64,000 bases of DNA, taken from Desulfobacterales bacterium. Lineage in GTDB: Bacteria > Desulfobacterota > Desulfobacteria > Desulfobacterales > UBA5852. The notes below the pieces were generated by a model that saw only the letters and a list, made by a program, of their open reading frames with translations, was not told the origin of the DNA and made no database searches. Shown in pieces: positions 50,722 through 56,631 of the stretch. How positions within the stretch are numbered: position 1 is the first letter of the stretch; every line of letters begins with the position of its first letter. The position numbers and the translations under genes were made by a program. The stretch is from positions 640,001-704,000 of the forward strand of contig CAXXVS010000003.1 in NCBI GenBank assembly GCA_963674755.2, written 5' to 3'.

Positions 50722-50794
50722 GGTATCTCCTCCTTCTCTGGTGGCGGCCCCGGTGCGGTTCGACCGATCCGGGATGCTGTTCGCTAAATGGTCT

Positions 50795-51049
50795 CTTCCT
50801 TTTCTTTCACGGGAAAGAAAAGGAAGCTAAAAGAAACCGCCCGCGTCCCGCTTAATCCTGCGCGTCGTCGCGGCGACCGGAGGGTGCGGAAATTCGCTTC
50901 GCTCAAACAGTCCGCACCCTTTAATCCGCCCGCCCCGCCGATGCTCGGCGCGGGACAAAGGGAAATACGAAAACCAAAGGCTAAAAGCCTTTTTTATGCC
51001 CCCTTCGGGGTGGGCTTTTAAGCTCCCCTGCTATACGGGGGAGACACGC
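50795..51049 (+). repeat. Structured ~260 bp repeat, family 2 copy 1
   Basis: TTTTCTTTCACGGGAAAGAAAA hairpin, GTCCCGCTTAA.CCTGCGCGTC, GATGCTCGGCGCGGGACAAAGGG, shared with 53821-54085 and 55466-55552. Confidence 0.88.
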
Positions 51050-53046: not shown

Positions 53047-53343
53047 TTTTTGTCCTTATTATGCATGTTGCATGATAATAACATCGTAAAATTATCTTGA
53101 GACAGTTGCGGCATACTTCGCAAAAGAAACAGGCCCGTTTCGGGCTCATATTTTATGTCAGTGGGCCAAAACAGAAGGCGCCCGAAAAGGGGAGATTTTT
53201 GCCGGCTTGGATGGTGCGGAAAAGTCGACTGCACGCTACCACGGCGGGTATGGCTTGTAAAGGGGAGTGGTTGGCGCAGCAGCGCTTCAGGGGAAGGTTA
53301 TGGCAGCGGGCCTTTGAGCAGAAGCGCACCGCCAAGAAGCGTT

Positions 53344-53470
53344 GATGAATCCGTAAGAAACCACCGAAAGAGCGGTTTTGTCATCCCTGCGGAGGCAGGG
53401 AGCCAGACTTTTTTGCTCTGGACTCCCGGCTTCGCGGGAGTGACGATAGGAGTCTTTTTACGGCACCATC
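53344..53470. repeat. Nested REP-like palindrome
   Basis: Inner GTCATCCCTGCGGAGGCAGGGAGCCAG...CTGGACTCCCGGCTTCGCGGGAGTGAC inside outer GATGAATCCGTAAGAAA...TTTTTACGGCACCATC arms. Confidence 0.8.
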
Positions 53471-53491
53471 TGGCGTTCACAAAAGACGACC

Positions 53492-53782
53492 TCATTGCAC
53501 CGTTCCGGCATAGGTGCCGGCTGCCTTGAGGGATGCCACCATCGCTTCCGGTGTTATTACGTCAGGGTCGTAGGTCACGGTGTTGATCTCACGCCCCCGG
53601 CGCCATCCGCGGGTGACCTCTTTCACGCCGTCCAGCCCGTCCAGGGCTGCCTTGCCCACGTCGTATCAGTGGACGTAGAAGGTGATCTCGGACAGGGGCG
53701 CATCGGCCCGGGCCGGGGCCGCCGCCCACGCGACGATCCCGGCCAGAAGCAGCAGCGTTGTCAGTATGCGTATTCTTTTCAT
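53492..53782 (-). CDS. Candidate exported selenoprotein, HMA/mini-MsrA-like (96 aa, TGA at codon 39)
   Basis: AAGGAGG RBS; signal peptide ending ARA; TFYVH-TGA-YDVGKAALDGLDGVKEVTRG...TVTYDPDVITPEAMVASLK continues in frame; SECIS-like hairpin 3' of the TGA. Confidence 0.8.
53633..53668 (-). promoter_or_regulatory. Candidate bacterial SECIS element
   Basis: TGA (53668-53666), 16 nt, then CAGCCC-TGGAC-GGGCTG with G at loop position 2; loop begins 22 nt after the TGA. Confidence 0.7.
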
Positions 53783-53820
53783 AAGCCATTTCCTCCTTTA
53801 TAGGCCGCGCGTGATCCCGG

Positions 53821-54085
53821 GTGAGTCTCCTCCCGCATAGCGGGGGGCCTCAGGAAACCCCCTCGAAGAGGGTTTGAAAACAGTTTTTGAGGTTTTGGTT
53901 TTGGATTTCCCTTTGTCCCGCGCCGAGCATCCCGTCTGCGGGCGGAAAAGACGCGGCGACCTGCTTGTCCGCCGAAGGCTTGCCGCAGGCGGGACGCGCA
54001 GGGTTAAGCGGGACACGGGCGTTTGAAGCCTGTCACGCCGAGGCGTGATTGCTTCCGTTTTCTTTCACGGGAAAGAAAATGAAGG
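53821..54085 (-). repeat. Structured ~260 bp repeat, family 2 copy 2 (inverted)
   Basis: Reverse complement shares the terminal hairpin, GTCCCGCTTAACCCTGCGCGTC, GATGCTCGGCGCGGGACAAAGGGAAAT and CCCC.GCTAT.CGGG blocks with copy 1. Confidence 0.88.
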
Positions 54086-54164
54086 ATCCAATTGATGTAA
54101 AGGCACCCTGGATCGGTAGAACCTCTCCGCGTCCTCCACCACAGGTGGAGGGCTTAGATCGAAA

Positions 54165-55310
54165 CTAGTTGAACAGCTTCGCAAATTGCCCATAGCCGTC
54201 CTTTGCCAGATCGGCCTGGGGGACGAAGCGCAAGGCCGCCGAGTTGATGCAGTAGCGCAGACCGGTGGGCTGGGGCCCGTCGTTGAAGACGTGACCGAGG
54301 TGGGAATCGGCGTGCTTGCTGCGGACTTCGGTGCGCACCATGAAGAGGCTGCGGTCCTTCTTTTCGACGACGTTCTCCGGCACCAGGGGCCGGGTGAAGC
54401 TGGGCCAGCCCGTGCCGGACTCGAATTTGTCCGTGGAACTGAACAACGGCTCGCCGGAAACGATGTCCACGTAAATCCCGGGCGCATGGTTGTCCCAGTA
54501 GGCGTTGTTGAAGGGCGGTTCGGTGCCTTCCTTCCGGGTGACCTTGTACTGCATGGGGGTCAGCTGTTCACGCAGCTGGGCGTCGTCAGGAATGGTATAC
54601 ATGGTCTTGTCCGCAGCGGCGGTCATCTTGTCGGGTTTCATTTCCTGCATATCGGATGTCATGGTCATATCGGGCACCTCTTTGCTCCAGGTTTCTTCTA
54701 AAAATTGGTCCCGTCCGGATCGCGAACGATACCATTTATAGCGGATCGGGTTTTTCTTGTAGTAGTTCTGGTGATACTCCTCGGCCGGGTAGAACGGTCC
54801 CGCGGGTTCGATCAGGGTCACGATGGGCTTGTCAAAGCGGCCGGAGGCGGCCAGCTTTTCCTTGGTGGCTTCCGCCAGCCGGTGTTCTTCTTCATTGCCA
54901 TAGAAGATGGCGCTTTTGTACTGGGGGCCCCGGTCCACGAACTGTCCGCCGTCGTCGGTGGGATCCACATGCCGCCAGAAGACATCCAACAGCTGGGCAT
55001 AACTCACCTTCGTCGGATCGTAGATCACTTGGACGGCCTCCACATGACCGGTGCGGCCGGAAGACACCTGCTCATAGGTGGGATTGACCTCTTTGCCGCC
55101 GGTATAGCCCGAGATGGCGTCAATGACGCCGTCCACCTTTTCGAAGTCCGACTCCGTGCACCAGAAGCATCCCCCGGCGAAGATGGCCGTGCGGGTCATG
55201 GCCGGGCCGGGCTTCATAGCCGGGTTGTCGCTTGTATCCATGCTGCGCACCTGGTGGTAGCCCACCAGGATCGCAGCGATTGCCAATGTGGTTATGATCA
55301 GGTTTCGCAT
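54165..55310 (-). CDS. msrAB: Exported bifunctional peptide-methionine sulfoxide reductase MsrA/MsrB
   Basis: N-terminal signal/anchor, [37 protein letters not shown]. Confidence 0.95.
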
Positions 55311-55442: not shown

Positions 55443-55465
55443 ACTGGCGCATGTGCAGCCGGCCG

Positions 55466-55552
55466 CATCGCCGATGCTCGGCGCGGGACAAAGGGCAATC
55501 AAAAACCAAAAACACAAAAACCGAATTCAAGCCTGCTTGAAGGGGGTTATCC
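55466..55552 (+). repeat. Family 2 repeat, partial copy 3
   Basis: CGCCGATGCTCGGCGCGGGACAAAGGG..AAAACCAAA identical to part of copy 1. Confidence 0.85.
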
Positions 55553-56631
55553 TATGTCTCCGGCGGTGTGACAGGCAGGGTCAGGTGGATCTGGAAGCGC
55601 CCCTCCTCCAGGGTGGCGGAAACCTTTCCGCCGTGGGCTTCCACCAGTTCCTTGACAATGGCCAGTCCGATGCCGGCCCCGCCGTGTTGCCGCGAGCGGG
55701 ATTTCTCGCCGCGGTAGAAGCGCTCGAACAGATAGGGCAGGTCGTCGGCCACGAGCCGGTCGGCGCGGTTGCCGTAGTCGATGCGCACCTGATGGTCATC
55801 CCCTGTCAGGCGGATCTCGATGCGCCCCCCGGCCGGCGAATAGCGGACCGCGTTGTCGGTCAGGTTGCGCATGACCCGGGCCAGGCGGCGCCGGTCCCCG
55901 GCCACGATCAGCGGGCTTTCCGGGAGGTCCACGTTAACGGTGACGGACTTCTCCTCCATGGTGCGGGCAAAGGGCGCCAGGGCGGTCCGGATGATGTCTG
56001 TCAGGTCCGTGGGCGCCAGATCGAGCCGGCCGTGGGCCGCATCGGCCCGGGCCAGCTGCAGAACGTCTTCCACCAGCTCGGCCAGTCGCAGGGTTTCCGT
56101 CTGCAGCAGGGTGAAGGTTTCCTTGGAAAAGGGCAGCACGCGGTCGTCCAGGGCTTCCAGGTAGCCGCGGATATTGGTAAGGGGGGTGCGCAGCTCGTGG
56201 GCCACGTCGATCATCAGGGTGCGGCGCAGGCGTTCGATGGCCTCCAGGCTGGCGGCCATCTGGTTGAAGGCCTGGGCCAGCTGGCCCACCTCGTCCCGGG
56301 AACCGACCGGCACCCGGGTGCCGAAATTCCCTTCGGCGATTTCGCGCGAGATGACGGTCATGCGGGAGAGGGGCGCCAGGACGCGCCGCATCATGAGAAA
56401 GCTCAGCAGCACGGCCAGGGCTACGGCCCCGGCAAACGCCCACAACAGATAGCGGTGGATGGCGCTTACGAACATGGCGTGGGCCGGCCTGGGCGAGATG
56501 TTGTACTTCTCCATGAGGGTCACGAAATAGCCCGCCGCCAGGGTGTCGATGGAAAACCAGACGATGACCATGGCAAAGCAGATGACGATCAGGTGGATGG
56601 CCAGCAGCTTGAGGATCAGGTAGCGCTTCAA
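55552..56631 (-). CDS. Sensor histidine kinase (HAMP-HisKA-HATPase)
   Basis: Two TM helices, HAMP, VAHELRTPL, NAVRYS, FERFYR, GAGIGLAIV; start at TTG 56631. Confidence 0.93.
   Translation of the reverse strand: MKRYLILKLLAIHLIVICFAMVIVWFSIDTLAAGYFVTLMEKYNISPRPAHAMFVSAIHRYLLWAFAGAVALAVLLSFLMMRRVLAPLSRMTVISREIAEGNFGTRVPVGSRDEVGQLAQAFNQMAASLEAIERLRRTLMIDVAHELRTPLTNIRGYLEALDDRVLPFSKETFTLLQTETLRLAELVEDVLQLARADAAHGRLDLAPTDLTDIIRTALAPFARTMEEKSVTVNVDLPESPLIVAGDRRRLARVMRNLTDNAVRYSPAGGRIEIRLTGDDHQVRIDYGNRADRLVADDLPYLFERFYRGEKSRSRQHGGAGIGLAIVKELVEAHGGKVSATLEEGRFQIHLTLPVTPPET

Follow-up and report, generated by a model that had tools for sequence, protein, structure and literature searches.

A TGA-containing gene beside msrAB in a Desulfobacterales genome very likely encodes a small selenoprotein with a predicted leader

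A gene interrupted by an in-frame TGA lies downstream of msrAB in a 64,000-nucleotide stretch of DNA from a Desulfobacterales bacterium (the whole stretch analysed is called the window), and we are highly confident that it is a selenoprotein gene. It combines an in-frame UGA with coding sequence kept on both sides and with homologs that have Cys instead, and because the TGA and the hairpin that follows it are kept in related genes, it very likely encodes a selenoprotein. The explanation that we consider best, and toward which we lean somewhat, is that the gene is read through with selenocysteine (Sec) to give a small, predicted exported, single-selenol oxidoreductase belonging to the adjoining periplasmic methionine-sulfoxide repair module. 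The features concerned are collected in Table 1.

Table 1. Features of the read-through gene and its surroundings (window coordinates)
Feature	Position	Strand	Basis or remark
Read-through gene, 96 codons plus stop	53492..53782	-	predicted single-Sec exported protein
Ribosome-binding site AAGGAGG	53792..53798	-	9 nt 5' of the ATG; sequence
Predicted N-terminal signal peptide, residues 1-26, ending ARA	53705..53782	-	sequence
In-frame TGA, codon 39, predicted selenocysteine	53666..53668	-	aligned to the MsrA catalytic Cys
SECIS-type upper stem-loop CAGCCC-TGGAC-GGGCTG	53633..53649	-	fold and conservation; lengthened to 53655-53627 by a weaker lower stem of 2 bp
Mature 70-aa ferredoxin-like domain	53495..53704	-	predicted model, profile alignment
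Upstream msrAB, MsrA-MsrB fusion, 381 aa, hydrophobic leader	54165..55310	-	conserved neighbour
OmpR-type response regulator	57338-56646	-	conserved neighbour
HAMP sensor kinase	about 56649-55552	-	conserved neighbour
Dispersed intergenic repeat between msrAB and the gene	53829..54090	.	blastn; not part of the system

The reading frame runs from the ATG at 53782 to a final TGA at 53494-53492, and its translation is an exact match to the protein quoted in the preliminary description of this DNA. That description had also pointed to a ribosome-binding site, to the absence of Cys and to a gene overlooked by the open-reading-frame list. All three were found as described: the site precedes the start, the 96 codons include no Cys codon, and the list holds only a 55-aa C-terminal piece with a GTG start at 53659. 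The same piece is present in a protein database (P0004), and public protein sets also hold separate N-terminal halves that stop exactly at the TGA. The distance from a start preceded by a ribosome-binding site to the Sec codon is 33-45 codons in 31 of 32 homolog loci, the remaining locus being cut by a contig end. By a hydrophobicity heuristic, the window protein has a basic N-terminus and an AxA-type leader end; a hydrophobic 12-mer with a mean Kyte-Doolittle value of at least 2.0 occurs in 41 of 43 homologs checked. The mature domain is without a second Cys in 43/43 members checked. A contig of the public DNA run X2 matches positions 53300-53934 with 0 differences; as X2 is possibly the window's own source, the match speaks only against an assembly slip. 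The RNA run X1 (share 0.08) has no coverage of the gene and is uninformative on transcription, and a promoter and terminator scan gave nothing assignable to it. A REP-like nested palindrome on the minus strand at 53380-53445, just 3' of the gene, could be a transcript end or a stabiliser; it has only 2 blastn matches in the genome at E 1e-8.

Homolog searches were run so that they read through stops, and removal of duplicates left 92 distinct genes read from DNA, the window's included. Excluded before counting were L025-L027 and L072 (chance, MsrA and CopA matches), L055-L061 and L063-L070 (partial, MsrA or HMA matches), duplicates, and matches without a locus sequence. At the Sec position 78 genes have TGA, 14 have a Cys codon (TGT or TGC) and none has TGG. 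Conservation on both sides of the TGA spans three phylum-level groups. Since related genomes are not independent samples, counts are given here instead of a P value. Outside the 92 genes stands one diverged or degenerate homolog with Ser at the Sec position (L054/L095), and one TGA copy, L062, looks degenerate. The gene is present in 13/17 genomes of the window's family, 28/251 of its order and, at E < 1e-14, 15/401 of its phylum, as well as in 18/201 genomes of the phylum of a Nitrospiraceae record; further matches, by record title, come from Desulfobacteraceae, Desulfobulbales, Geopsychrobacteraceae, SAR324 and the Olavius Delta 3 symbiont. The family is thus spread over Desulfobacterota-type, Nitrospirota and SAR324 genomes. 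Several Cys forms (L107, L114-L116, L118-L121) have Glu or Asp where the TGA forms keep Val42, as if the codon had been freed by loss of the SECIS or the chemistry had changed.

The TGA might instead be a true stop or a Trp codon, in which case the gene would be a pseudogene or encode two small peptides, and the hairpin would be incidental. Database proteins lend this some color, as 29 of 75 full-length entries in alignment A3 have Trp at the Sec site and many databases call the 55-aa piece from the GTG. The Trp forms, however, look like miscalls of TGA as Trp. Six of the 29 run past the normal end via another Trp, compared with 0/44 Cys forms, and P0002 equals the stop-ended N-terminal half P0122, a Trp, the C-terminal half P0009 and a further Trp. 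The eight Trp forms that were looked up are each a singleton from one contig of at most 1.2 kb. A few genuine Trp forms may be present among the database proteins. A metagenome scan with a pattern for Cys or Trp codons, which cannot match TGA, returned 6 stretches, one of them a true member (TGC) and another a chance match; these are too few to exclude real Trp forms on their own. Set against a stop or Trp codon are also the conservation of both flanks over three phylum-level groups, the Cys codon in 14 genes and the lack of TGG among the 92.

The hairpin bears on the same question. It had been claimed to follow the TGA with its loop 22 nt away and G at loop position 2, and both features are seen in the minimum-energy fold. 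Taken alone it is modest: its z-score is -1.9, a point in favor of an incidental structure, and 11/200 shuffles fold equally well. As given in the available text of PMC13188914, the bSECIS model allows a loop of 3-9 nt, a stem of at least 4 bp, an energy of at most -7.5, G in the first two loop positions and a distance of 16-37 nt from the UGA. In our own implementation of this published model the window hairpin passes, as do 68/78 TGA genes versus 4/14 Cys genes; of random TGA triplets from contig C3, 245/1500 pass. A stricter hairpin core was found in 71/78 TGA genes and only 1/14 Cys genes, so that the hairpin is kept with the TGA and is lost once Cys replaces it.

Codon usage in the stem points the same way. 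Among 42 TGA genes, Ala46 is GCC in 41, and Leu47 (CTG) and Gly49 (GGG) are invariant in all 42, compared with the control codons Gly43, Gly52, Gly59 and Val56, each of which uses all four codons. The upper stem is 93% paired in 31 aligned sequences, falling to 23-47% when the whole structure is slid out of register. Covariation is weak evidence, with two-sided changes (A-U/U-A/G-U) in only one stem pair and three pairs invariant. The hairpin is under synonymous constraint, and its conservation is what places it far above chance. A true stop or a Trp codon is, on this evidence, very improbable.

The genome has the full machinery that had been called for. It carries selA, two selB and two selD, all above curated cut-offs, together with two selC genes for tRNA-Sec (in G000, tRNA-Sec at C1:791274-791365 and C2:1226048-1226145, selB at C1:790172 and C2:1902839, and selD at C1:776949 and C3:2083622). 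Both selD genes have an internal TGA, one of them with a similar hairpin and a GGA loop, and a gene of the MvhD/FlpD family contains TGA as well. The tRNA-Sec on C1 directly adjoins a selB. A separate MsrA of the GUFW type (L081, G000:C2:2284056-2284469) has TGA at its catalytic position. Co-occurrence with selA was considered as support and dropped, the background being 379/401 genomes of the phylum; for this reason, selA in carriers indicates capacity only. Carriers without a selA match numbered 2/27 in one test and 1/17 in another, all counted in draft assemblies whose completeness is not given.

The gene order in the window is response regulator, sensor kinase, msrAB with leader, dispersed repeat and read-through gene. 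In several relatives the gene starts only about 25 nt past the end of msrB, where the window has the repeat. This repeat of about 260 bp has 81 blastn matches in the genome, 49 of them of at least 100 nt, and further copies lie at about 50786-51005 and 55459-55575 of the window. We examined 46 loci (43 TGA, 3 non-TGA) to 4 kb or the contig end. In 27 of the 43 TGA loci msrA and/or msrB lies within 4 kb, and 4 more, one of them the query's own locus, have a molybdo-oxidoreductase of the sulfite-oxidase family; three such enzymes scanned were below the cut-offs for SorA, SorT and MsrP. Neither Msr nor a molybdo-enzyme occurs within 4 kb in the remaining 12, several of which are cut by contig ends. 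The 3 non-TGA loci have no msr, molybdo-enzyme or related two-component system. At least four gene orders are represented: either msrAB or msrB-msrA precedes the gene, msr genes follow it, or msrAB lies past the regulator pair on the other strand. At a distance of up to about 1.6 kb, msr genes accompany 40/78 TGA and 11/14 Cys genes, and a molybdo-enzyme flanks 11 more of the 78. In G205 a single frame joins a leader, the Sec domain and a Sec-MsrA, and a separate hairpin goes with each TGA. A role in Msr-linked redox defence appears likely; the narrower role of an Msr-recycling partner is put forward tentatively.

Several loci have further companions. The G205 fusion (L097, G205:C4, about 181200-184400) sits within a cluster of four TGA-plus-hairpin sites, flanked by a peroxiredoxin-like UxxC gene and by a radical-SAM-like one whose TGA is C-terminal. 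A 20-kb region (L151, G521:C1:217500-237400) has four copies of the gene, of which two TGA copies and one Cys copy are full and one is partial. It also contains msrAB, regulators, a molybdo-oxidoreductase, a gene for a Met-rich exported protein and one that by eye resembles cytochrome c peroxidase. Small Met/Lys-rich proteins with leaders are encoded directly upstream of the gene at L020:3492-3794, L021:2854-3180 and L023:3454-3858; scanned against Pfam and NCBIfam they gave no match, and they are possible MrpX-like scavengers. In the Olavius Delta 3 locus (L011:3069-3743), an exported spondin-domain protein (NF038123) is encoded in the interval that separates the two-component system from the gene.

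An OmpR-type regulator or kinase with at least 40% identity to that of the window occurs within 4 kb in 24/46 loci, all of them TGA loci and including L011 and L088, which have no msr in range. This would suit a periplasmic oxidant sensor or modulator, a selenoprotein whose Sec oxidation switches the neighbouring kinase that controls msrAB, as would the strong conservation of the surface-type residues Tyr40, Asp41, Asn67, Thr90 and Tyr91. The co-occurrence may, however, merely mirror one regulon. The gene is also found with msr or a molybdo-enzyme and no regulator in range, it is fused to Sec-MsrA in G205, and its kept catalytic Glu suggests chemistry. We regard a sensor as rather unlikely.

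In an AlphaFold2 model built from a 98-row alignment with Cys substituted for Sec, the mature protein is a ferredoxin-like domain (pLDDT 96.5) with the Sec position just before helix 1. The preliminary description had aligned the protein by eye both with MsrA and with HMA domains; both alignments are real, with about equal scores (hhalign 97.8 for HMA and 97.7 for MsrA, a near tie). Structurally, HMA domains are the top matches (6a71, Z 9.7, rmsd 1.9 Å, 66 aligned residues); MsrA cores give Z 7.1-8.3 and the lowest rmsd of all (1.4 Å over 66-67 residues for 4lwj, 5fa9 and 3bqe). HMA ranks above MsrA by Z-score (9.7 vs 8.3) and by Foldseek E-value. In profile comparison the best match is to the MsrA-like domain at the C-terminus of VPGUxxT type 2 proteins (hhalign probability 99.5, E 2.5e-22), a domain that itself matches MsrA at 99.1 and HMA at 95.1. 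ESM Atlas matches were all below 0.9 and serve as leads only: two unnamed clusters, then one with 13% PMSR.

The TGA had been said to fall at the MsrA catalytic Cys or HMA metal-loop position, and the profile alignment agrees. The alignment to MsrA runs without gaps from beta1, past the catalytic Cys, as far as the SGY glycine; Sec39 takes the place of the catalytic Cys, Tyr40 that of Phe, and Asp41 (Asp in 88/98 aligned members) that of Trp. Glu65 corresponds to the Glu of the MsrA HxE motif and is kept in 95/98 members, and some HMA domains also have Glu at this position. By profile alignment, then, the protein has the Cys or Sec at the start of helix 1 and the HxE Glu of MsrA, and it is without the Trp of G[C/U]FW, the PTY tyrosine, which goes with a deleted 17-residue loop, and the C-terminal half with its His/Tyr pocket residues, the domain ending at residue 96. 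The MsrA models PF01625 and TIGR00401 gave no PMSR match for the window protein, and PF01625 is matched by only 7/98 members at E <= 0.01. The earlier description as mini-MsrA-like is thus apt for the fold and the Sec-Glu pair; because the substrate-pocket residues are absent, a functional mini-MsrA in the strict sense is probably not what the protein is. On the HMA side, the model has the ferredoxin-like fold and the size of about 70 aa of PF00403, again with Cys for Sec, and the C-terminal helix and AGTY end look HMA-like; there is a single Sec or Cys and no GMxCxxC, and the PF00403 score is 12.5 bits against 24.8. We read the modelled protein as a putative MsrA-derived half-domain.

That description had also left a choice between a single-Sec redox protein and a metal-binding one. 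As the latter, the selenoprotein would be a MerP/CopZ-like periplasmic binder of a soft metal (Cu(I), Ag(I), Hg(II)), with one selenolate and O/N ligands. The HMA folds are the best matches (6a71 at the Z-score above, MerP 1osd at a Foldseek E of 4.8e-4), the best PDB sequence-profile match is MerP (E 3.2e-4), and MerP is an exported protein. Furthermore, 62/98 members match NF041115, a UxxU metal-binding selenoprotein, with nine members scored individually far below the cut-off; the window protein reaches 28.3 bits against at least 95 and has one Sec and no UxxU. Against metal binding stand the one Sec or Cys, the absent GMTCxx loop, and His38, found in only 26/98 members. A true HMA-domain neighbour occurs at 1/92 loci, compared with strong Msr linkage; two of three apparent HMA neighbours were discarded as paralogs of the read-through gene itself. 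Because the neighbours are Msr and not metal transporters, His38 is unconserved and the beta1-helix1 loop is in the MsrA register, the redox reading is favoured and metal binding is improbable.

For an oxidoreductase of the Msr module, the following steps are proposed: 1) SelB would read the hairpin and Sec would be inserted at codon 39; 2) the protein would be exported like the neighbouring MsrAB; 3) a selenolate at the start of helix 1, in the place of the MsrA catalytic Cys, would lie beside the retained catalytic Glu; 4) the reactive selenolate would attack an oxidised sulfur or oxygen species, with Glu65 protonating the leaving oxygen; and 5) the likeliest substrate would be the oxidised catalytic Cys of the neighbouring MsrA or MsrB, for which the protein would supply the resolving selenol in trans. 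The last choice follows from the absent methionine pocket and the open site, from the lack of a conserved thioredoxin or CcdA neighbour and from MsrA being the fusion partner. No thioredoxin or CcdA family was found among the neighbour clusters common to two or more loci. We grade the in-trans reduction of MsrA/MsrB as a weak step, with direct scavenging of small oxidants as a close alternative. Loss of the resolving Cys in linked MsrAB was rejected as support for recycling: the neighbouring MsrAB lacks the usual resolving Cys, and so do 4/4 MsrAB fusions from genomes without a detected family gene.

Scavenging could also be the whole of its function. The protein would then be an autonomous minimal reductase or sacrificial scavenger of peroxide, hypohalous acids or small sulfoxides, co-regulated with Msr and never touching it. 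A Sec-Glu pair kept without a methionine pocket is consistent with this, as are the molybdo-oxidoreductase at 11/78 TGA loci, which would not need thiol recycling, and the small Met-rich exported proteins in three loci plus one in G521; the arrangement recalls the MrpX/YedY hypochlorite module, as far as the available text of PMC4436054 describes it. Turnover would require a reductant, however, and no conserved gene for one was found among the neighbours, while the Sec-MsrA fusion suggests close coupling. We judge an autonomous scavenger unlikely, and continue to prefer an oxidoreductase of the Msr module. Its boldest form, that a free, exported, bare MsrA catalytic half is the missing selenium-based reductant for periplasmic MsrA and MsrB, is possible though doubtful; it takes together an uncatalogued family, anaerobes with msr loci that have no thioredoxin/CcdA module, and a living link between MsrA and HMA.

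The family is apparently undescribed. Of nine proteins scored one by one, none reaches an NCBIfam cut-off, and all 98 aligned members give weak matches only in NCBIfam and Pfam. The family motif is absent from the 119 families of Table 1 in the available text of PMC13188914 and was not found in the accessible parts of the deep-Sep paper (PMC12013277), where the supplement was included in the search. Compared by name, without alignment figures, the new families of the accessible portion of PMC1976440 give no match, and the portion of bioRxiv 2022.07.06.499078 at hand makes no mention of MsrA or HMA. The NF accessions that a review, in its available text, credits to Haft and Tolstoy 2025 are not among our NCBIfam matches. 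Listings and abstracts, with subscription journals mostly outside their coverage, gave no description of the family.

What the finding offers is a family that annotation pipelines split into 'hypothetical' pieces of 38 and 55 aa or miscall with Trp, and that would link selenium with the repair of proteins outside the cytoplasm in sulfate-reducing bacteria and related groups, in which the electron source for the exported MsrAB is not apparent from the locus. New families of bacterial selenoproteins appear in the literature with some regularity, so the finding is moderately surprising until its function is demonstrated. The natural Sec/Cys pairs, among which the hairpin is gained and lost, make a ready test set for SECIS rules, and a minimal scaffold of 70 residues allows one to ask what the MsrA Cys/Sec-Glu pair does without its substrate pocket. 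The family also bears on how MsrA relates to HMA domains; if the doubtful reductant reading is true, it would stand as a living link from the MsrA core to the HMA metal-chaperone fold.

Compared with known systems, the protein would be like an MsrA catalytic half on an HMA-sized scaffold, in neither family by defining motifs. With MsrA, including the one-Sec enzyme of C. oremlandii (4lwj), the model shares the core fold (66 residues, rmsd 1.4 Å, Z 8.3), Sec at the catalytic Cys position, the neighbouring aromatic residue and the catalytic Glu. In the available text of PMC4479559, the equivalent Glu55 of the C. oremlandii enzyme is essential and protonates the sulfoxide oxygen, and that enzyme likewise has a single Sec and no resolving Cys; its active-site residues Trp18, Tyr47, His137 and Tyr140 have no equivalents in the window protein. 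Unlike MsrA, the protein has 70 aa rather than about 150-210, the C-terminal half being gone and the remaining active-site His and Tyr with it, the Trp of GCFW is Asp, and the domain stands alone behind a predicted leader peptide.

Likeness to VPGUxxT type 2 proteins (NF041383) is found at their positions of about 140-205, matched by 95/98 members, with the same shortened loop. Those proteins differ in having 160-370 aa and a thioredoxin domain with a VPGU/C motif, and their MsrA-like domain keeps C-[FY]-W and runs on for about 100 more residues; the window protein scores 37.7 bits against a cut-off of 275, over profile positions 142-204 only. Their C-terminal domain is a short-loop MsrA-like domain (P0126, P0136, P0148, P0162, P0172, P0175), which P0136 and P0175 show behind a leader, the thioredoxin domain being absent from these two. 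HMA proteins (MerP, CopZ, NF041115) resemble the protein in fold and size (Z up to 9.7), in the alignment of Sec to the second Cys of CxxC, and in a similar C-terminal helix and Tyr-bearing loop. In contrast to them, it has no CxxC or UxxU, no GMxCxx loop and a shorter beta1-helix1 loop, in the MsrA register.

As a system, the locus resembles MrpX/YedY(MsrP), the periplasmic hypochlorite-defence module of Azospira suillum as described in the available text of PMC4436054: a small protein, exported there and predicted to be so here, stands beside a periplasmic methionine sulfoxide reductase and a regulator, with Met-rich small genes in some loci. MrpX differs in being a Met-rich sacrificial peptide under sigma/anti-sigma control, according to the same text, whereas the window system combines a folded Sec domain with a thiol-dependent MsrAB and an OmpR-type two-component system.
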